Source: Escherichia coli (lineage in GTDB: Bacteria > Pseudomonadota > Gammaproteobacteria > Enterobacterales > Enterobacteriaceae). From it: 64,000 bases of DNA. Both the position numbers and the translations under genes were made by a program. Shown piece by piece: positions 1 through 11,376 of this stretch. How positions within the stretch are numbered: position 1 is the first letter of the stretch; every line of letters starts with the position of its first letter. The notes under the pieces were generated by a model that saw only the letters and a list, made by a program, of their open reading frames with translations, had not been told where the DNA came from and did no database searches. The DNA is taken from the NCBI RefSeq assembly GCF_003018235.1, contig NZ_CP027437.1; one strand, written 5' to 3'.

Positions 1-306
1 TTATCCATCGGTGAGCAAATCACCATGCTGTTGATCCTGATGTTGACCTCGAAAGGAATGGCTGGCGTACCACGCGCCTCAATGGTGGTTATCGCCGCCA
101 CGCTCAACCAGTTCAATATTCCGGAAGCGGGGCTGATCTTGCTGATGGGCGTTGATCCGTTCCTTGATATGGGGCGTTCCGCGACAAACGTCATGAGCAA
201 CGCAATGGGCGCTGCGATGGTGAGTCGGTGGGAAGGCGAACATTTCGGCGAGGGTTGTCGGGGTAAAGCATTAAAACCCAATGAATCGAACGTTGCTCTG
301 CCCTGA
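1..306 (+). CDS. DAACS-family (DctA/GltP-like) dicarboxylate/amino-acid:cation symporter, C-terminal fragment; 5' end lies outside the window
   Basis: Frame 1 is open from position 1 to a stop at 304-306. The C-terminal sequence (…GVPRASMVVIAATLNQFNIPEAGLILLMGVDPFLDMGRSATNVMSNAMGAAMVSRWE) resembles the conserved C-terminal region of GltP/DctA-type symporters as I recall them. Confidence 0.6.
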   Translation, partial: LSIGEQITMLLILMLTSKGMAGVPRASMVVIAATLNQFNIPEAGLILLMGVDPFLDMGRSATNVMSNAMGAAMVSRWEGEHFGEGCRGKALKPNESNVALP

Positions 307-413
307 GGGGGATCTTAAGCAATCAGAAGCCAATGACTACGCATTTTTATAAGCCGGATCATGAAGTTAGACGGCAATTAAGTAACACTAACGTTTAAGG
401 TGAAAAGTGAAAT

Positions 414-1610
414 ATGTCCAAACCATTTATCTGGCAAGAACCGTTTCTACAAAATAAAGACGGTACAGAATATACATTAATTAGCGATCAACATATTACA
501 GTAACGGAATTAGACGGCGAAGAAGTGATAAAAATCGCTCCTGAAGCATTAACGCTGCTTGCCCGGCAGGCATTTTATGAAGCCTCTTTTTTCTTACGTT
601 CCGCTCATTTGCAACAGGTCGCCAGCATTCTTAACGATCCGCAGGCCAGTAGTAATGATAAATACGTTGCGTTGCAGTTATTACGTAATGCTGAAGTCTC
701 AGCAAAAGGGGTATTACCCAACTGTCAGGATACCGGCACCGCAACTATTGTTGCCAGTAAAGGGCAACAGATATGGACGGGAGGTAACGACGCTGAAGCC
801 TTAAGCAAAGGCATTTACAGTACTTTCCAGGAAAATAATCTGCGCTTTTCACAAAATGCGCCGCTGGATATGTATACCGAAGTCAATACGCAAACCAATC
901 TCCCGGCGCAGATTGATATCAGCGCTGTCGCTGGTAATGAGTACCATTTTCTCTGTGTTAATAAAGGGGGCGGCTCCGCCAATAAAGCCGCACTTTATCA
1001 GGAAACCAAATCCTTATTGCAACCAGAAAAACTGACCGCATTTTTAATCGAAAAAATGAAATCGCTGGGCACCGCTGCCTGCCCGCCTTACCACATCGCC
1101 TTTGTCGTCGGAGGGCTTTCAGCCGATCAAACCTTAAAAGTTGCCAAGCTGGCCTCTACGAAATATTACGACAATTTGCCCACCAGCGGAAACGAGCAGG
1201 GACAAGCATTCCGTGATATTGAGCTGGAAAAAGTGTTGCTCGAGGTCAGTCAGCAATTTGGTATTGGTGCGCAATTTGGGGGTAAATATTTCGCTCATGA
1301 TATTCGCGTCATTCGTCTGCCGCGTCACGGTGGCTCTTGCCCGATAGCTATGGCGCTCTCCTGTTCTGCCGATCGCAATATCAAAGCAAAAATTAACAAG
1401 CACGGTATCTGGCTGGAAAAACTCGAACACAATCCGGGGCAATATATTCCAGCCTCACTGCGGGAAGAAAATCACGCGCAACATGTACAACTGGATCTAA
1501 ACCGTCCGTTGCGTGACGTGATGCAGGATCTCGCCAGATTACCGGTAGGCACCCGCGTGTCGTTAAGTGGTCCCATCGTAGTGGCACGCGATATCGCCAC
1601 GCCAAAATAA
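414..1610 (+). CDS. Class I (Fe-S) fumarate hydratase / L(+)-tartrate dehydratase family protein, N-terminal 398 aa; reading frame interrupted relative to full-length FumA-type enzymes
   Basis: 398-aa ORF whose sequence aligns, from memory, with FumA/TtdA. The C-terminal domain continues in the -1 frame (next feature). Confidence 0.75.
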
Positions 1611-1636
1611 AAGCGCGGCTGGATAACGCCGAACCG

Positions 1637-2065
1637 ATGCCGGATTACCTGAAGCATCATATTGTCTATTACGCTGGCTCGGCGAAAACACCGGAGAACA
1701 TGGCCTGCGGTTCACTGGGTCCAACCACGGGCGGTCGAATGGACGGTTATGTCGATACCTTCCAGGCGGCTGGCGGCAGTCTGGTGATGTTATCGAAAGG
1801 TAACCGCAGCCAGCAGGTCACCGATGCCTGTCACAAACATGGTGGCTTCAATCTGGGTAGTATTGGCGGTGCAGCTGCGTTACTGGCGCAAGAATATGTC
1901 AAAAGTCTGCGTTGCCTGGAATACCCGGAGCTGGGTATGGAAGCGGTGTGGATGATGGAAGTGGAAAATCTGCCCGCATTCATCCTGGTAGATGATAAAG
2001 GCAATAATTTCTTTAGTCAGTTTGAGCAGCAACACCGCTGCGCCAGTTGCCCTGCGGGACATTAA
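1637..2065 (+). CDS. Class I fumarate hydratase family, C-terminal (beta-type) domain fragment; probable continuation of the 414-1610 ORF after a frameshift
   Basis: 142-aa ORF ([12 protein letters not shown]…[12 protein letters not shown]…[12 protein letters not shown]) matching my recollection of the FumA C-terminal domain. The same frame read upstream (…[21 protein letters not shown]) matches the FumA linker. Confidence 0.7.
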
Positions 2066-2074
2066 GGAAAATGA

Positions 2075-2677
2075 ATGGAAGCGCGAATTTCAACTGAACG
2101 GCATGTGCAGCGCCAGCAGAAATTGAAGGAACAGGTCGATACGCGCATCGCGGCGGCGATAGAGAAAAAAGGGATTTTGATTGTTTTCACCGGCAATGGC
2201 AAAGGGAAATCCACTGCCGCGTTTGGTACTGTGACGCGCGCGGTGGGTCATGGCAAAACGGTGGGGGTTGCGCAGTACATCAAGGGGCAATGGGACAACG
2301 GCGAATACAACCTTCTCCAGCCGCTGGGGGTTGAGTTTCATATTATGGGAACCGGTTTTACCTGGGAGACACAGAACCGGCAAGCGGATATCGACGCGGC
2401 GAAAGAGGTCTGGTCGGAAAGCAAACGGATGCTGGCTGACAAGCGTTACGACTTAGTGGTGCTTGATGAGCTGACCTATATGCTGGCTTACCATTATCTG
2501 GATACCGAAGAAGTGATCGCTTCTCTGCAAAACCGCCCGGCACAACAAAGTGTCATTGTCACCGGACGCGGTTGCCACAGTCAGATATTAAAAATGGCGG
2601 ATACGGTCAGCGAAATCCGCCCCGTCAAACATGCTTTTGATAACGGCATTCAGGCCCAGCCGGGTATCGACTGGTAA
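2075..2677 (+). CDS. Cob(I)yrinic acid a,c-diamide / cob(I)alamin adenosyltransferase family protein (CobA/CobO/BtuR-like P-loop ATPase), a paralog rather than btuR itself
   Basis: 200-aa ORF with a P-loop (IVFTGNGKGKSTAAFG) and overall similarity to BtuR as recalled (…VLDELTYM…VIVTGRG…VSEIRPVKHAF). RBS AAGGA lies 6 nt upstream and the start is 10 nt past the fumarase stop, so the genes look co-transcribed. Confidence 0.75.
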   Translation: MEARISTERHVQRQQKLKEQVDTRIAAAIEKKGILIVFTGNGKGKSTAAFGTVTRAVGHGKTVGVAQYIKGQWDNGEYNLLQPLGVEFHIMGTGFTWETQNRQADIDAAKEVWSESKRMLADKRYDLVVLDELTYMLAYHYLDTEEVIASLQNRPAQQSVIVTGRGCHSQILKMADTVSEIRPVKHAFDNGIQAQPGIDW

Positions 2678-2680
2678 TAA

Positions 2681-2713
2681 CTGCGCCTGGCATCCCGCCA
2701 GGCGCAGGTTTTA
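2681..2713. terminator. Probable bidirectional intrinsic terminator between the convergent CobA-like and LysR genes
   Basis: Perfect 11-bp inverted repeat ctgcgcctggc / gccaggcgcag with a 5-nt loop (2681-2707), followed by gtttta. Confidence 0.5.
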
Positions 2714-3616
2714 CATCTCCTGCGGTACAACCGATTTCGCCAGCAACCATTCACGAAATTGCTGCAAGTGCGGTGAGTCAGACTTCTCTTCCTGCCACGT
2801 CATAATAAAACGATTACCGGTACGAATAGGCACATCACAGGGGATCACCATATCGCCACTATCCAAATCATGTTGAATAGCGAAACGTGGTAACAGCGCC
2901 ACGCCGAGATTAGAGCGCACGGCGGCAATCAGCATTGAAAGCAAATCGAAACGTGGTCCGTTGTTGACCAGCGGACTGCTAACGCCAGATAAGGCAAACC
3001 ACTCTTCCCAGCCAGTAATACGGGTACTTTGATGCAGAAGTGGTAACTCTGTAAGCAGTTCTGCCACTGACAGTTTTTGATCGGACATTGCAAGCAAACT
3101 GCCGCTGCATACCGGCAAAATCTCCTCATCAAAGAGATATTCTACTTCCGCCCAGGGCGCGCAAAAATTTTCGCGCATAATGACAGCATCGTACTCCCGA
3201 TTAAGAAAATCGCCGTTATTAGCTAAAGAGTGAATATTAACAATAATATCGGGATGTAACTTTGTGAATTCATGTAAATTTGGGATTAACCAGTGGGTAC
3301 TAAACGTAGGATTCACGGCAAGTTCAATAACCTGAACCGTAGGCTGCCAGGTCATAATGGTATTGGTATCGCGTTCCAGCTTATTTAATGTTTCTTTTAC
3401 TATCCCCAGGTAATACTTCCCTGCATCATTAAGAAAAATACGTTTTTTAGAGTGTGAAAATAACGGAGTATGTAAAAATTCCTCCAGCGCACTCACTTGT
3501 CTGAATACTGCACTTTGGGTCAACGCTAACTCCTCTGCCGCTTTGGTATAACTTTCATGACGTGCGACGACCTCAAAAGTCACCAGCAGCTCCGTTTTAG
3601 GTATTTTTCCTCGCAT
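2711..3616 (-). CDS. LysR-family transcriptional regulator
   Basis: 301-aa ORF with an N-terminal HTH (…YTKAAEELALTQSAVFRQVSALEEFL…) and LysR-type substrate-binding domain architecture. AT-rich upstream region at 3617-3900. Confidence 0.8.
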   Translation of the reverse strand: MRGKIPKTELLVTFEVVARHESYTKAAEELALTQSAVFRQVSALEEFLHTPLFSHSKKRIFLNDAGKYYLGIVKETLNKLERDTNTIMTWQPTVQVIELAVNPTFSTHWLIPNLHEFTKLHPDIIVNIHSLANNGDFLNREYDAVIMRENFCAPWAEVEYLFDEEILPVCSGSLLAMSDQKLSVAELLTELPLLHQSTRITGWEEWFALSGVSSPLVNNGPRFDLLSMLIAAVRSNLGVALLPRFAIQHDLDSGDMVIPCDVPIRTGNRFIMTWQEEKSDSPHLQQFREWLLAKSVVPQEM

Positions 3617-4180
3617 AATGCCGTCCCTTAAAAATAGTTTAAACCATCAAAAATACATTACTTATTACGAAGTAATGGTAACCAAAGCAGCAATAAATAA
3701 TTTATAAGAATCATGATTGACATTTATAACCCAGTAAGCCTGGCGTGACAAATATCTTAATCAGATAATAATAATCCGAAAAGCACAGCGCCTTTCGAAT
3801 TATCCGGAATCACATTAAGTGAAAATTATTAAATTGATATCATTTATCATATCTGTGGATATTATGATAAACAATCAACAAAGATTTTATTTTTGATTTA
3901 TAGCATATCCCTCTAAGAATTTTTGCGATGCTGCAATATCCGGGGTAAAGACCCGATCCTGGCTGACAAATGGCACGACTTGACGATAAGCGGTGAACAT
4001 CGCTTTTGTTGATTTACTTAACGCTACGGTCAAACGCTGGGAAGCCAGTGCATCAGGTAACGATTCGAAATTCGCCGTCGTTCTTATTCGTGGCTTGCGG
4101 TCGGTTGCGGCAATCCACAGTGGCTGTGGTCATGCAGTCAAGCCAGCGGTCAGATTTCGACCGTGGTTAACATTTAAGGC

Positions 4181-4205
4181 ATAAAAAAGGCCATCATACG
4201 ATGGC
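4181..4205 (-). terminator. Rho-independent terminator of the suc operon (and 3' end of sdhX)
   Basis: On the minus strand: hairpin GGCCATCGTATGATGGCC followed by TTTTTT. Confidence 0.7.
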
Positions 4206-4281
4206 CAACCATGTCGAAACCGACAGCCCTTCGCCATTCCTGTAGAGGGAAGCGGCGAGGGCTATTTCTTATTACAGATAT
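4182..4281 (-). ncRNA. sdhX: SdhX (RybD) sRNA derived from the sucD 3' UTR
   Basis: A ~100-nt segment between the sucD stop and the intrinsic terminator, at the position where sdhX is described in E. coli K-12. Assigned by position and terminator only; I cannot verify the seed sequence from memory. Confidence 0.5.
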
Positions 4282-5151
4282 TTATTTCAGAACAGTTTTC
4301 AGTGCTTCACCGATATCCGCCAGGCTGCGAACGGTTTTCACGCCTGCGGCTTCCAGAGCAGCGAATTTCTCATCCGCAGTCCCTTTACCACCGGCAATGA
4401 TGGCACCCGCGTGGCCCATACGTTTGCCTTTCGGCGCAGTCACACCAGCGATGTAACCCACAACAGGCTTGGTAACGTGCTCTTTGATGTACGCAGCCGC
4501 TTCTTCTTCAGCGCTACCGCCGATCTCACCGATCATCACGATCGCTTCGGTCTGCGGATCTTTTTCGAACATTTCGAGGATGTCGATAAAGTTAGAGCCA
4601 GGGATCGGGTCGCCGCCGATACCGACACAGGTCGACTGACCGAAACCGTAATCCGTGGTCTGTTTAACCGCTTCATAGGTCAGTGTACCGGAACGGGAAA
4701 CGATACCCACTTTACCCGGTTTGTGAATGTGACCAGGCTGGATACCGATTTTGCATTCACCCGGAGTGATAACGCCTGGGCAGTTCGGGCCGATCATACG
4801 AACGCCAGCTTCGTCCAGTTTCACTTTCACAGTCAGCATATCCAGCGTCGGGATGCCTTCAGTGATGGTGATAATCAGTTTGATGCCTGCATCAATAGCT
4901 TCCAGAATGGAGTCTTTGCAGAACGGTGCTGGTACGTAGATAACAGAAGCGGTAGCGCCAGTAGCAGCAACAGCTTCACGCACGGTGTTGAACACCGGCA
5001 GGCCGAGGTGGGTGGTGCCGCCTTTACCTGGGGTTACGCCGCCAACCATTTTAGTGCCGTATGCAATGGCCTGTTCTGAGTGGAAAGTCCCCTGGCTACC
5101 GGTAAAGCCCTGGCAGATAACCTTGGTGTTTTTATCAATTAAAATGGACAT
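4282..5151 (-). CDS. sucD: Succinyl-CoA synthetase alpha subunit
   Basis: 289-aa ORF, recognised from memory as SucD ([24 protein letters not shown]…). Confidence 0.97.
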
Positions 5152-6317
5152 TATTTCCCCTCCACTGCGGCAACAACCTGCTGAGCTGCATCCGTCAGAC
5201 CTTTTGCTGCAATAATATTCAGGCCGCTGTCAGCCAGTTTCTTCGCGCCGAGTTCGGCGTTGTTACCTTCCAGACGTACCACGACCGGTACGTTAACACC
5301 CACTTCCGCTACCGCGCCGATGATACCGTCAGCGATCAGGTCGCAACGAACGATACCGCCGAAGATGTTAACCAGAACGGCTTTCACTTTGTCGTCAGAG
5401 AGGATGATTTTGAACGCTTCGGTTACACGTTCTTTGGTTGCGCCGCCGCCAACGTCAAGGAAGTTAGCTGGTTCGCCGCCGTGCAGTTTAACGATGTCCA
5501 TCGTACCCATCGCCAGACCTGCGCCGTTAACCATACAACCGATGTTACCGTCCAGCGCAACGTAGTTCAGTTCCCACTGTGCAGCCTGTGCTTCACGTGG
5601 ATCTTCCTGCGACTGGTCACGCATTTCGCGCAGATCAGGCTGGCGGAACAGTGCGTTGCCATCAGCGCCCAGTTTGCCGTCGAGGCAAATCAGATCGCCC
5701 TGTTTGGTGATGACCAGCGGGTTGATTTCGATCAGCGCCAGGTCGCGCTCCAGGAAAATGGTCGCCAGGCCCATGAAGATTTTGGTGAACTGCTGAACCA
5801 GTTTACCTTCCAGACCCAGTTTGAACGCCAGCTCGCGTCCCTGATACGGCATCGGGCCAGTCAGCGGATCAAGCGCAACTTTGTGGATCAGGTGCGGAGT
5901 TTCTTCCGCCACTTTTTCGATTTCCACGCCGCCTTCGGTGGAGGCCATAAAGACCACACGACGGGAACTACGGTCAACAACGGCACCGAGATACAGCTCT
6001 TTAGCGATATCGGTCGCTGCTTCAACCAGAATCTGGTTAACCGGTTGGCCATTGGCATCTGTTTGATACGTTACCAGACGCTTGCCCAGCCAGTTTTCTG
6101 CAAAAGCACGGATGTCTTCTTTGCTGTTTACAACTTTCACACCGCCCGCTTTACCGCGGCCACCAGCGTGAACCTGACATTTCACTACCCACGGACCGGC
6201 ACCGATTTTTGAAGCGGCTTCTTCTGCTTCGCGCGGAGTAGTACAGGCATAACCCACCGGTGCTGGTAAGCCATAGCGGGCAAAAAGTTGTTTTGCCTGA
6301 TATTCATGTAAGTTCAT
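5151..6317 (-). CDS. sucC: Succinyl-CoA synthetase beta subunit
   Basis: 388-aa ORF ([18 protein letters not shown]…); ATGA overlap with sucD. Confidence 0.97.
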
Positions 6318-6410
6318 GTGTTCTGTCCATCCTTCAGTAATCGTTATCTTTTAAACCGTAGACCGACACCCTATCCACGTCGGTCTACAGTGCAGGTGAA
6401 GCTTAAACTA

Positions 6411-7628
6411 CTACACGTCCAGCAGCAGACGCGTCGGATCTTCCAGCAACTCTTTGATCGTTACCAGGAAGCCCACGGATTCGCGACCATCGATCAGACG
6501 GTGATCGTAGGACAGCGCCAGGTACATCATCGGCAGGATCTCAACCTGACCATTCACCGCCATCGGACGATCTTTGATAGCGTGCATACCCAGAATTGCG
6601 CTCTGCGGCGGGTTGATGATCGGCGTAGACATCAGGGAACCGAACACACCACCGTTGGTGATGGTGAAGTTACCACCGGTCAGATCTTCAACCGTCAGCT
6701 TGCCGTCACGGCCTTTAACTGCCAGCTCTTTGATTTTCTTCTCGATGTCTGCCATGCCTAGGGTATCGACATCACGCAGTACCGGCGTCACCAGGCCGCG
6801 CGGCGTAGAAACCGCCATGCTGACGTCGAAATAGTTGTGGTAAACCACATCATCGCCGTCGATAGACGCGTTCACTTCCGGGTAACGTTTCAGGGCTTCA
6901 ACCACCGCTTTCACGTAGAAGGACATAAAGCCCAGACGAATACCGTGACGTTTTTCAAACGCTTCACCGTACTGCTTACGCAGATCCATAATCGGCTTCA
7001 TGTTGACTTCGTTGAACGTGGTCAGCATAGCGGTGGAGTTTTTCGCTTCCAGCAGACGCTCTGCCACACGCTTACGCAGGCGAGTCATCGGCACACGTTT
7101 TTCGCTACGTGCAGCCAGAGCCGGTTGCGCCGCCGGAGCAGCCGCTGCCGGAGCAGACTCTTTCGCCGGGGCTTTCGCCAGATGTTTTTCCACATCTTCA
7201 CGAGTCAGACGACCACCCACACCGGTGCCTTTAATGGCGCTGGCGTCGAGGTTGTGTTCAGCCAGCAGGCGACGGATCGCCGGGCTTAACGCATCGTTGT
7301 TTTGCTCTTCCAGAGACGCCTGCTGGCGTTGCGCCGGAGTGGACGCTTTCTCTTCAGATTTGGCGCTGGTTTCTTTACCGGCGCTGTTGCCTTCACGCAG
7401 GCGACCAAGGATCTGACGAGACGTTACCGTTGTACCTTCATCTTCCAGAACCGCATCCAGAATGCCGTCTGCTGATGCCGGTACTTCCAGTACCACTTTG
7501 TCAGTTTCGATTTCTACCAGCACTTCATCACGTACGACTGCGTCGCCGGGTTTTTTATGCCAGGTTGCGACGGTGGCATCGGCTACGGATTCAGGCAGGT
7601 CAGGGACCAGAATATCTACGCTACTCAT
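6411..7628 (-). CDS. sucB: 2-oxoglutarate dehydrogenase E2 (dihydrolipoyl succinyltransferase)
   Basis: 405-aa ORF with a lipoyl domain (…[12 protein letters not shown]…) and a catalytic domain ending …DPTRLLLDV. Confidence 0.97.
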
Positions 7629-7642
7629 TGTGTATCCTTTAT

Positions 7643-10444
7643 TTATTCGACGTTCAGCGCGTCATTAACCAGATCTTGTTGCTGTTTCTGGTGAACGGAC
7701 ATATACCCTACCGCCGGAGAGGCGGAGGCCGGGCGGCCTGCATAACGCAGAGAAGCCCCAAACGGAATCACTTCACGGAAATGATGCTGGCTGCAGTACC
7801 ATGCGCCCTGGTTGAGCGGCTCTTCCTGGCACCAGACAAAATCCTTGACGTGAGCAAACTGCTGCAACACTTCCTGCATCGCTTTATGCGGGAACGGGTA
7901 GAGTTGCTCGATACGCACAATGGCGACATCGTGTTGATTGTTCTTACGACGCTGTTCCAGCAGGTCGTAATAAACCTTACCAGAACACATCACTACACGC
8001 TTAACGCCCTTCGGATCAAGCTCGTCGATTTCACCGATGGCTGGCAGGAAGGTGCCGTTCGCCAGTTCTTCGAGGCTGGAAACCGCCAGCGGATGACGCA
8101 GCAGGGATTTCGGCGACATCACGACCAGCGGACGACGCATCCCGCGCAGCGCCTGACGACGCAGCATGTGGTAAACCTGTGCCGGGGTAGAAGGTACGCA
8201 AACCTGCATGTTTTGCTCAGCACAAAGTTGCAGATAACGTTCCAGACGCGCGGAGGAGTGCTCCGGCCCCTGCCCTTCGTAACCGTGCGGCAGCAACATC
8301 ACCAGACCACACATCCGGCCCCATTTCTGTTCGCCAGAGGAGATGAACTGGTCGATAACCACCTGAGCACCGTTAGCGAAGTCACCGAACTGCGCTTCCC
8401 AGATAGTCAGAGTGCGTGGTTCTGCGGTGGCATAACCATATTCAAACGCCAGCACTGCTTCTTCAGACAGTACGGAGTCCCAGACACGGAACGCGCCCTG
8501 GCCGTTATGGATGTGTTGCAGCGGCGTGTAAGTGGAACCGTTAGACTGGTTGTGGATCACCGCGTGGCGGTGGAAGAAGGTACCGCGACCGGAGTCTTCA
8601 CCCGACAGGCGAACCGGAATGCCTTCGTCAACCAGCGTGGCGTAAGCGAGGTTTTCCGCGCCGCCCCAGTCGAACAGTTTCTCACCAGCTGCCATCGCCT
8701 GGCGATCGCCATAAATCTTGGCAACGCGAGACTGCATTTCAACTGCTTCCGGCACCGTGCTGATGCGTTTAGCCAGTTCCTGCAGGCGCTTCATCTCAAC
8801 TTTGTTCGGGTACTCTTCGTCCCATTCGTGGTTGAGGTACGGCGACCAGGTGAAAGAGTGCATGTTCATCGGACGCCACTCTGCTACCACGCAATCGCCA
8901 GCATCCAGCGCATCGCGGTACAGGTTAACCATCTCGGTGGCATCTTCCAGCGTCGCGACTTTTTCCTGCTCCAGCTTGTCAGCGTAGATTTTGCGCGGCG
9001 TCGGATGTTTTTTGATTTTCTGATACATCAGCGGCTGGGTTGCGCTCGGCTCGTCGGCTTCGTTGTGGCCGTGACGGCGGTAGCATACCAGGTCGATAAA
9101 GACATCACGTTTAAAGGTGTTACGGAAATCGAGCGCCAGACGGGTCACAAAGGCAACGGCTTCCGGATCGTCCGCGTTAACGTGGAAAATCGGGGCCTGA
9201 ACCATCTTACCGATATCAGTACAGTACGGTGTAGAACGAGCATCCAGCGGATTAGAGGTGGTGAAGCCAACCTGGTTGTTGATAACGATACGTACCGTAC
9301 CGCCAACTTCATAACCACGCGCTTTCGACATGTTCAGGGTTTCCTGAACCACGCCCTGCCCGGTCACTGCGGCGTCACCGTGGATGGTAATTGGCAGCAC
9401 TTTGTTGCTGCTCGGCTCATCAAGTCTGTCCAGACGGGCACGAACAGAACCGATAACTACCGGGCTGACAATCTCAAGGTGAGACGGGTTAAACGCCAGC
9501 GCCAGGTGCACCAGGCCGCCATCGGTCTGGAAGTCAGACGAGAAGCCCATGTGGTATTTCACGTCGCCTGTGCCAAGGTGTTCTTTATGTTTACCGGCGA
9601 ACTCGTCGAACAAGTCTTGCGGTTTTTTACCCAGCACGTTCACCAACACGTTCAGACGACCACGGTGCGCCATTCCGAGAACCACTTCGCGGGTGCCGCT
9701 GTTGCCAGCGTGGCGGATCATCTCTTTAAGCATCGGGATTAACGCGTCACCGCCTTCCAGCGAGAAGCGTTTTGCGCCAGGGAATTTTGCGCCGAGGTAA
9801 CGTTCAAGGCCTTCAGCGGCGGTCAGTTCGCTTAAGAAGCGTTTTTTCTCTTCGCTATTGAAAGTCGCGCGACCAGACTCGATACGCTGTTGGATCCAGC
9901 GTTTTTCTTCAGTGCTGGTAATGTGCATATACTCGGCACCAATCGGGCCGCAGTAGGTTTGCTTGAGGGCTTCCAGCAGCTCGCCGAGTTTCATGGTTTC
10001 TTTGCCGCTGGCAAATGAACCGACGTTGAAGGTCTCCTGGAAGTCTGCTTCGGTCAGATCGTGGAAAGACGGATCCAGATCGGCCACTTTATCTTGCTGC
10101 CACAGTCCCAGCGGATCGAGATTCGCATGCTGGTGACCACGGAAGCGGTATGCGTTAATGAGCTGCAGGACTTTAACCTGCTTCACATTGGTGTCAGGGT
10201 CGGAGATCGTTGAAGAGTAACGTGAAGCGTCTTTCGCCAGGCGGCGGAAATATTCACGCGTTTGAGAGTGGAATTGATCCGGTTTGACTCCCGTACCAGG
10301 TAACTGCTGGAACGTCGAACGCCAGTTAGCGTCAACCGAGTCAGGATCGGTTAAGAAGTCTTCATAGAGCTGTTCTATCCAGCTCTGGTTTGCGCCAGAG
10401 AGGTAAGAAGAGTCCAACCAGGCTTTCAAAGCGCTGTTCTGCAT
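7643..10444 (-). CDS. sucA: 2-oxoglutarate dehydrogenase E1 component
   Basis: 933-aa ORF ([30 protein letters not shown]…). Confidence 0.97.
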
Positions 10445-10644
10445 CGTGATCCCTTAAGCATCTTTTTTATGCTTACTTCGCCGTGGATACTACCACGCAC
10501 AGTGATGTGCGTGCCGGGGTTCACTTGCGAGCTCTTGTCTACGTAGTGGCTCGCGAAGGAACCTTTAAAAACTGTCTTAGTGTCAGGGGCAGTTTTTAAA
10601 GATTTCCTGAATAGCCGGGGGATTTCCCCGGCATCAACATTTAA

Positions 10645-11361
10645 TTACGCATTACGTTGCAACAACATCGACTTGATATGGCCGATGGCGCGCGTCGGGT
10701 TCAGTCCCTTCGGACATACACTGACGCAGTTCATGATGCTGTGACAGCGGAATACGCTGAATGCATCGCTCAAACCGTCGAGGCGGCTGTCAGTCTCGGT
10801 ATCACGGCTATCGATCAGGAAACGATATGCCGCTAACAAGCCTGCCGGGCCGATAAACTTATCGGGATTCCACCAGAAAGACGGACAAGAGGTTGAACAA
10901 CATGCGCAGAGAATACATTCATACAGCCCGTCGAGTTTTTCGCGCTGCTCTGGCATCTGTAAATGCTCGCGAGCTGGCGGATTTTGTCCATTATTCAACA
11001 GGTAAGGCTTAATTTTCTCATATTGCGCATAGAATTGTCCCATGTCTACCACCAAATCGCGGATCACCGGTAAACCTGGCAGCGGGCGAATCACAATCTT
11101 CTTGCCCGGCTGGTTGAGTGCCGAAATCGGGGTAATACAGGCCAGACCATTCTTGCCGTTCATGTTCAGACCGTCGGAACCGCACACACCTTCACGGCAG
11201 GAGCGACGGAACGACAGGCTGGGATCTTTCTCTTTCAGCTGGATAAGCGCATCCAGCAGCATCATGTCACGACCTTCTTCCGCTTCCAGGGTGTAATCCT
11301 GCATACGCGGAGCATCATCAACATCCGGGTTATAGCGATAAATTGAAAACTCGAGTCTCAT
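10645..11361 (-). CDS. sdhB: Succinate dehydrogenase iron-sulfur subunit
   Basis: 238-aa ORF with Cys clusters typical of SdhB. Confidence 0.97.
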   Translation of the reverse strand: MRLEFSIYRYNPDVDDAPRMQDYTLEAEEGRDMMLLDALIQLKEKDPSLSFRRSCREGVCGSDGLNMNGKNGLACITPISALNQPGKKIVIRPLPGLPVIRDLVVDMGQFYAQYEKIKPYLLNNGQNPPAREHLQMPEQREKLDGLYECILCACCSTSCPSFWWNPDKFIGPAGLLAAYRFLIDSRDTETDSRLDGLSDAFSVFRCHSIMNCVSVCPKGLNPTRAIGHIKSMLLQRNA

Positions 11362-11376
11362 TTTCCTGTCTCCGCA

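Follow-up and report, generated by a model that had tools for sequence, protein, structure and literature searches.

The first 4178 bases of a 64,000-nucleotide stretch of Escherichia coli DNA (contig NZ_CP027437.1 of RefSeq assembly GCF_003018235.1; the whole stretch is called the window in the following) are very probably the tail of the known enterobacterial island for the methylaspartate pathway ("glutamate fermentation"), which replaces mngR-mngAB in about one fifth of E. coli, pathogenic strains and others. Four genes are found here, encoding the end of a DAACS-type transporter, the class I iron-sulfur (Fe-S) hydro-lyase FumD, the ATP:cob(I)alamin adenosyltransferase homologue CobA and a LysR-type regulator. 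The cluster, the pathway and the FumD enzyme have already been published, and the island is ordinary apart from its fumD gene, which is broken in this lineage. A preliminary description of the window, made from the sequence alone, had placed the four genes and their orientations, including the convergent lysR, in agreement with the six-frame listing of open reading frames (ORFs). The gene families it named (dicarboxylate-type symporter of the DAACS type, class I hydro-lyase, CobA-like protein and LysR) are upheld by NCBIfam and Pfam.

The cluster had been described as consisting of four genes. This was an effect of the window edge, which cuts through an island of roughly 13 kb between cydA and sucD, with eight further genes upstream. 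The annotation of this region in strains 272, GF60 and O157:H7 Sakai gives the published gene order. Starting from the cydA side, two hypothetical genes are followed by glmS, glmL, glmE, the methylaspartate ammonia-lyase gene, an AtuA-family gene, a DUF4387 gene, the transporter gene, fumD and cobO/cobA, with lysR on the opposite strand. For the island genes outside the window we used L014, an independent Logan assembly of the same lineage, which shows one mismatch to the window over 11,610 bases and has the published gene order. All island genes except fumD have their Sakai lengths in L014, and the genes for GlmS, GlmE, GlmL and methylaspartate ammonia-lyase are full length there. A megablast search of 5426 complete E. 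coli genomes recovered the 4.3 kb in full from 1119 (~21%), in line with the earlier claim that the cluster is accessory and not part of the conserved core. In K-12-like genomes the match begins only at about position 4175 and mngR occupies the site; in K-12 itself mngR-mngA-mngB adjoin sucD, as the preliminary description had stated. Since GF60 runs straight from cydA into the island, without mng genes in between, we regard the island as a replacement of mngR-mngAB. No remnant of mngR was detected in 3600-4300 by tblastn and blastn against K-12, and sequence common to K-12 begins only at 4179. The AT-richness that had been noted is real, with a guanine-cytosine (GC) content of 47.4% for 1-4178 versus 51.6% for the rest of the window, but it is modest, and clearly low values are confined to lysR (44.8%) and the spacer 3617-4178 (38.4%). 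Strain 23CRST031 (NZ_AP045800.1) matches window positions 3024-4300 only, and an IS1A element lies under the match; this looks like an IS1-associated truncation that left part of lysR while the remaining island was lost.

The island of about 12 genes, ECs0755-ECs0767 of O157:H7 Sakai, was published by Kronen and Berg (2015, PLoS One 10:e0145098, PMC4682846). These authors found genes for glutamate mutase and methylaspartase in 26.5% of E. coli and in 90.6% of O157:H7 strains, in every case at one locus with the gene for a fourth fumarase of class I, which they named FumD, and described the carriers of the cluster as (opportunistic) pathogens. Their Figure 5 labels GltP (glutamate transporter), FumD, CobA and LTTR (LysR-type regulator) beside glutamate mutase and methylaspartase. 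With the whole cluster drawn and named and FumD purified, the description as an uncharacterised module has to be given up. Sakai and window proteins are 98.4-100% identical, and Sakai GlmS, GlmE, GlmL and Mal all score above their NCBIfam equivalog cut-offs.

The proposed route starts with the import of glutamate, for which the DAACS carrier would be responsible. GlmS/GlmE, together with the chaperone GlmL and using adenosylcobalamin, would convert glutamate to (2S,3S)-3-methylaspartate, and methylaspartate ammonia-lyase would turn this into mesaconate and ammonia. FumD would then form (S)-citramalate from mesaconate, a step for which in vitro evidence comes from the 98%-identical O157 enzyme. 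CobA would adenosylate imported corrinoid for the glutamate mutase, and the LysR protein is the presumed regulator. A citramalate lyase was not found by Kronen and Berg (2015). ECs0760 (AtuA family) and ECs0759 (DUF4387) match the PDB entries 9ERQ/9EVF with E = 1e-291 and 5e-57, and the chains of these entries were named "Citramalate lyase, subunit A (cmlA)" and "subunit B (cmlB)" by the depositors. CmlA is about 92% identical, judged by eye, and citramalate lyase activity of CmlAB is stated in a preprint. Based on the depositor names and the preprint, CmlA/CmlB (AtuA plus DUF4387) would cleave citramalate to pyruvate and acetate. Consequently, with the CmlAB match, the island is predicted to encode the full route from glutamate via 3-methylaspartate, mesaconate and (S)-citramalate to pyruvate and acetate.

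Several points weigh against this assignment. That the pathway runs in E. coli cells is a prediction from the genes, and O157:H7 strain ATCC 700728 neither grew on glutamate nor showed methylaspartase activity, with or without cobalamins (Kronen and Berg, 2015). The upstream genes lie outside the window and are deduced from the near-identical independent assembly L014. The transporter substrate, the client of CobA and the targets of LysR are proposed from sequence and synteny. A literature search for a description of CmlAB, or for a follow-up on fumD in E. coli, yielded only the preprint using the enzyme. Finally, lysR is convergent with the cluster and does not show the divergent layout that is usual for such regulators. 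We also obtained no usable LysR operator when the regions upstream of glmS and lysR were compared for T-N11-A dyads and shared 10-mers; one trivial dyad and two chance 10-mers were found.

The assignment of the hydro-lyase gene is direct. The published fumD cloning primers are exact matches at window positions 414-435 and 2048-2065, and after restoring one C the gene encodes 550 amino acids, 541 of which are identical to the characterised ECs0757, an orthologue at the same locus with the same neighbours. Purified FumD (ECs0757) is an oxygen-sensitive mesaconase/fumarase with a kcat/Km of 2e6 for mesaconate versus 7.5e5 M-1 s-1 for fumarate (Kronen and Berg, 2015). The substrate had been called unpredictable from sequence, whereas this orthologue is characterised as a mesaconase that prefers mesaconate over fumarate. 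Of the compounds suggested for growth tests, mesaconate is indeed what the hydro-lyase acts on, and citramalate is what it forms. The preliminary description was also right about the family, but it overlooked a frameshift that splits the gene into ORFs 414-1610 and 1637-2065. The intact allele of GF60 scores 1279.6 with the FumD model NF011921 (cut-off 1060) and passes, while the window pieces fail with 901.6 (profile positions 1-396) and 331.5 (409-550). A single chain of about 550 amino acids is thus no longer encoded, and we therefore regard the gene as an orthologue turned pseudogene.

Alignment to the Leishmania fumarate hydratase structure 5L2R places the cluster-ligand cysteines C104, C223 and C317 and the ARD arginine R392 in the first ORF, and one of these cysteines aligns within SCSADR of 5L2R. 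We take the corresponding ligands of Leishmania FH-2 to be numbered C133, C252 and C346. The C-terminal, TtdB-like domain begins near residue 372, and the break falls within it. Thirteen conserved residues are lost before the second ORF resumes at Met409, and this ORF covers positions 39-168 of TIGR00723 and 409-550 of NF011921. Within it, T1679 causes the exchange P423S inside the conserved YYAGPAKTP motif, which is kept in 5L2R.

We considered that the split might be an error of sequencing or assembly and the gene intact in the organism, as only a single base is lost from a short C run and the stretch around the deletion site has an exact match in none of the 1068 complete genomes carrying that stretch. 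However, the exact truncated product of 398 amino acids is present on 17 contigs of public assemblies, and L014, which differs from the window at one position in 11.6 kb, carries the same deletion. Moreover, P423S, another private change, is only 83 bases from the deletion; T1679 is shared by none of 1071 complete genomes. Because the exact truncated product recurs on 17 independent public contigs, the frameshift is taken as a real lineage trait and sequencing error was rejected as its cause; we judge it very unlikely.

It might also be that both pieces are produced and join again to form an active mesaconase of two chains, comparable to clostridial MesA/MesB, with the split at a non-canonical point of the C-terminal domain. 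Natural alpha/beta class I hydro-lyases do exist, the ATG of the second ORF is only 26 bases beyond the stop of the first, and the three cysteine ligands are all in the first piece while the motifs GPTTGGRMD and KGNRS are in the second. On the contrary, the break lies 23-37 residues into the beta-type domain and thus off the natural subunit boundary (7XKY_B aligns from residue 370), and the thirteen conserved FumD residues are missing from either piece. Direct reading of the sequence before 1637 gave no clear ribosome-binding site, and a conserved proline is altered in the second ORF as well (P423S). A reassembled enzyme is thus highly improbable. We conclude that fumD is, as read from its sequence, inactivated in this lineage by the 1-base deletion, with P423S in addition. 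FumA and FumB hydrate mesaconate with 4% and 19% of their efficiency for fumarate (Kronen and Berg, 2015), and because both enzymes accept mesaconate the loss of fumD may be partly buffered. Any residual flux in this lineage would need this promiscuous mesaconase activity. In a milder alternative, the lineage would be a natural fumD-null in which FumA or FumB takes over the mesaconase step of the island.

The neighbourhood of cobA and a gene for an Fe-S hydro-lyase had appeared unusual. It had been taken as a functional pairing within a self-contained, uncharacterised four-gene organic-acid module of undefined substrate, in which the CobA-like protein would aid the hydro-lyase, for example in its maturation. 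The two genes are indeed co-oriented and only 9 bases apart, and nothing else in the window accounts for cobA. However, the window cuts the operon, and a B12-dependent mutase is encoded upstream in every genome examined. The protein itself scores above the cut-offs of TIGR00708 (246.6 vs 167.75) and NF004637 (296 vs 185) and aligns over its full length with Salmonella CobA (1G5R, 3e-88), keeping the P-loop GNGKGKS and a Phe/Trp pair (GFTW). In Salmonella CobA this pair is F91/W93, which we take to close over the corrinoid. The island protein is 67% identical to K-12 BtuR/CobO and identical in 199 of 200 residues to ECs0756. From these data, it is a true CobA-type paralogue and a predicted adenosyltransferase; passing the equivalog model and keeping the P-loop and the corrinoid-site Phe/Trp of the Salmonella enzyme speak against a maturation factor. 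In addition, ordinary reactivation with Fe2+ and thiol was enough to obtain active FumD in the absence of CobA (Kronen and Berg, 2015).

Citrobacter, Enterobacter and Salmonella have the nearest relatives of the island CobA, 83-87% identical and likewise of 200 amino acids. One contig was examined per genus; in each, cobA lies inside a cluster with glutamate mutase, and the order mutase, ammonia-lyase, AtuA, DUF4387, SDF carrier, fumD, cobA and opposite-strand lysR is kept in all three. The synteny comparison proposed for Escherichia and Salmonella therefore confirmed an accessory cluster in E. coli, but a larger one than supposed, whose order is kept in Salmonella together with glutamate mutase. 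In the simplest reading, CobA would serve the adenosylcobalamin-dependent glutamate mutase encoded just left of the window and nothing specific to FumD. The adjacency to the hydro-lyase gene is explained because the mutase outside the window needs adenosylcobalamin. A separate four-gene module in which CobA assists the hydro-lyase has next to no probability in our view.

The transporter tail is identical to ECs0758 in 101 of 101 residues. The SDF domain (PF00375) covers the whole length of the protein from the identical lineage, and matches to structures of the GltPh type extend over about 400 residues. We scored the full-length transporter from GF60, the 99.9%-identical genome, and it falls below the NCBIfam cut-offs for both DctA (312 vs 513) and GltP (302 vs 638). 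It is 40% identical to K-12 GltP and 34% to DctA, and it is placed on a branch separate from both equivalogs. The substrate-site motif in transmembrane segment 8 (TM8) reads LDMGR in the island protein, LDMAR in GltP and in the PDB aspartate transporter 9BGZ, and MSEAR in DctA. In GltPh, as Boudker and colleagues are said to have described in 2007, the aspartate binds the amino group of the substrate and the arginine its distal carboxylate. Because the Asp/Arg pair is as in GltP, we predict an acidic amino acid (glutamate, possibly methylaspartate) as substrate and not a plain dicarboxylate.

On the sucD side of lysR we detected the degraded remnant of an ammonia-lyase gene. Residues 511-556 of a protein from strain S1-IND-02-A align by tblastn at 3890-4027 (89% identical) and residues 378-397 at 4019-4078 (90%), and weak NCBIfam matches point to the C-terminus of histidine ammonia-lyase. 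An ORF of 63 amino acids on the plus strand (3993-4184) was rejected as a gene since it has no family match. At the same spot S1-IND-02-A (L015 12888-20629) carries an intact ammonia-lyase gene followed by hutG, hutI, hutD, a permease gene and hutU. These hut genes occur intact in 145 of the 5426 complete genomes; their position at this spot is known from S1-IND-02-A, the one genome examined. Histidine catabolism ends in glutamate, and because of this an ancestral island may have coupled the breakdown of histidine (in other genera, of glutamine) to the methylaspartate route. This suggests an ancestral flow from histidine to glutamate and on to pyruvate. In Salmonella enterica (L011 7244-8245) and Enterobacter cloacae (L012 7255-8256) a glutaminase gene is located between the transporter gene and fumD. 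In the Salmonella cluster, the interval from lysR to sucD additionally holds genes for a TP_methylase, a PocR-type regulator and an Asp/Glu racemase. In S1-IND-02-A, the gene for glutamate mutase E is annotated as frameshifted (L015 3492-4936), another independent decay event.

Alternatively, as Kronen and Berg (2015) considered possible, the island might not be catabolic in E. coli and might instead yield mesaconate or citramalate for secretion or in connection with virulence. Their observations that cells did not grow on glutamate, that no expression was seen in vitro and that the carriers are described as (opportunistic) pathogens would fit this idea. It is at odds with the citramalate lyase encoded in the island, through which the route would run on to pyruvate and acetate, and with the glutaminase gene in two genera and the adjoining hut cluster in some E. 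coli, which would feed glutamate in. We therefore regard a purely secretory role as unlikely and retain the catabolic methylaspartate route. The fumD pseudogene, the glmE frameshift, the IS1-truncated copy and the hut remnant suggest that selection on the island is often weak in E. coli, which fits the reported failure to find conditions for its expression (Kronen and Berg, 2015). Such natural variants could help to test the purpose of the pathway in the gut. As a discovery the finding has little weight, because the cluster, the pathway and the FumD enzyme are published. It does call for caution in window-based scans, since an odd pairing of genes close to the border of a window may have its explanation in neighbouring genes that the window no longer includes, here a B12-dependent mutase.

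Table 1. Features at the left end of the window.
Feature	Position	Strand	Basis or remark
Right-hand end of the island	1-4178		ORF listing and neighbourhood comparison
DAACS (SDF, PF00375) transporter, last 101 codons and stop of a 426-amino-acid protein	1-306	+	orthologue of ECs0758
TM8 substrate-site motif L-D-M-G-R (Asp 166-168, Arg 175-177)	163-177	+	alignment
fumD, class I Fe-S fumarase homologue (mesaconase/fumarase D), frameshifted pseudogene	414-2065	+	primers, alignment, NCBIfam
fumD ORF1, 398 amino acids	414-1610	+	native residues 1-395, then T-P-K and stop
1-base deletion site (GCCCAC to GCCAC), about 1597	1596-1599	+	alignment to GF60 and strain 272
fumD ORF2, 142 amino acids, residues 409-550 of the C-terminal (TtdB-like) domain	1637-2065	+	NCBIfam profiles
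cobA/cobO, ATP:cob(I)alamin adenosyltransferase (predicted), 200 amino acids, second copy beside btuR	2075-2677	+	NCBIfam, alignment
GC-rich hairpin, 11 pairs, then T's, between convergent cobA and lysR	2681-2707	+	pattern match only
lysR, LysR-type regulator, 301 amino acids, orthologue of ECs0755	2711-3616	-	convergent with cobA
AT-rich spacer upstream of lysR	3617-3886	.	3617-4178: 38% GC, ~560 bases
Degraded HAL/PAL/TAL-family (hutH-like) ammonia-lyase remnant	3887-4078	-	tblastn, weak NCBIfam
Island right border, K-12-like from 4179; sucD 3' untranslated region	4179-4281	-	blastn to K-12
Terminator hairpin in the sucD 3' untranslated region	4189-4206		pattern match; island junction just beyond the hairpin
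sucD	4282-5151	-	ORF listing; sucCBA, then sdh genes beyond

The regulator is identical to ECs0755 in 297 of 301 residues and has the domains HTH_1 (PF00126) and LysR_substrate (PF03466). Many models for LysR-type regulators match; the nearest NCBIfam model is GcvA, with a score below the cut-off (221 vs 288). In E. coli, Salmonella, Enterobacter and Citrobacter alike, its gene lies at the 3' end of the cluster and is convergent with the other genes, and the hairpin between cobA and lysR is probably the operon terminator. A promoter scan of the spacer gave no enrichment over shuffled sequences. Beyond the junction, the small RNA SdhX is processed from the 3' untranslated region of sucD in E. 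coli. Rfam, searched with E up to 0.1 in 1-4600 and with gathering thresholds in the whole window, gave no match, this untranslated region included. At the opposite, cydA end of the island, ECs0766 and ECs0767 are two co-oriented hypothetical genes of 140 and 314 amino acids (Sakai L006 15712-17160; L014 228-1675), and they had no NCBIfam or Pfam match.

Sequence identity along the region is mosaic. Window positions 1-4226 are 99.9% identical to GF60, while the upstream island genes (L014 589-9600) reach 98.4% and the suc and sdh flank 98.3-99.3% (window 1-13300 compared). For window positions 4300-29000 the best complete genome is 98.9% identical, and none is higher. Recombination breakpoints apparently flank the four-gene stretch, one close to each end. 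The spacer between sucA and sdhB (window ~10612-10644) is about 150 bases shorter than that of GF60, and what GF60 has in addition resembles repeated palindromic units of the REP type.

Compared with known systems, the island is closest to ECs0755-ECs0767 of Sakai, which has the same locus (sucD-cydA), gene order and orientation. This lineage differs from Sakai by the 1-base deletion and P423S in fumD and by its sequence mosaic. The clostridial methylaspartate cluster (C. tetanomorphum, C. tetani: glmS-mutL-glmE-mal-mesAB-citDEF) carries out the same chemistry from glutamate to pyruvate and acetate, and both clusters have the mutase, the chaperone, the ammonia-lyase and a mesaconase of the class I fumarase type. 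However, the clostridial mesaconase consists of two subunits, whereas FumD is a single chain, and for citramalate the clostridia have a lyase of the citrate-lyase type (CitDEF), unrelated to the AtuA/DUF4387 CmlAB of the island. A CobA, a DAACS carrier and a LysR regulator of its own are further features of the enterobacterial island. FumA and FumB of E. coli share fold and cluster ligands with FumD and hydrate mesaconate too. On the contrary, FumD prefers mesaconate 2- to 3-fold over fumarate, belongs to the separate equivalog NF011921 and scores below the FumA cut-off (924 vs 1105). With the housekeeping CobA/BtuR (1G5R/4HUT; K-12 btuR) the island CobA shares family, length, P-loop, Phe/Trp pair and equivalog model. 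K-12 BtuR is only 67% identical to it, though, and the island form sits within the cluster in the three contigs examined. Operons for adenosylcobalamin enzymes that carry their own ATP:cob(I)alamin adenosyltransferase are known from eut, with EutT, and pdu, with PduO. The island follows the same logic, although EutT and PduO come from other, unrelated adenosyltransferase families and the island copy is of the CobA type.

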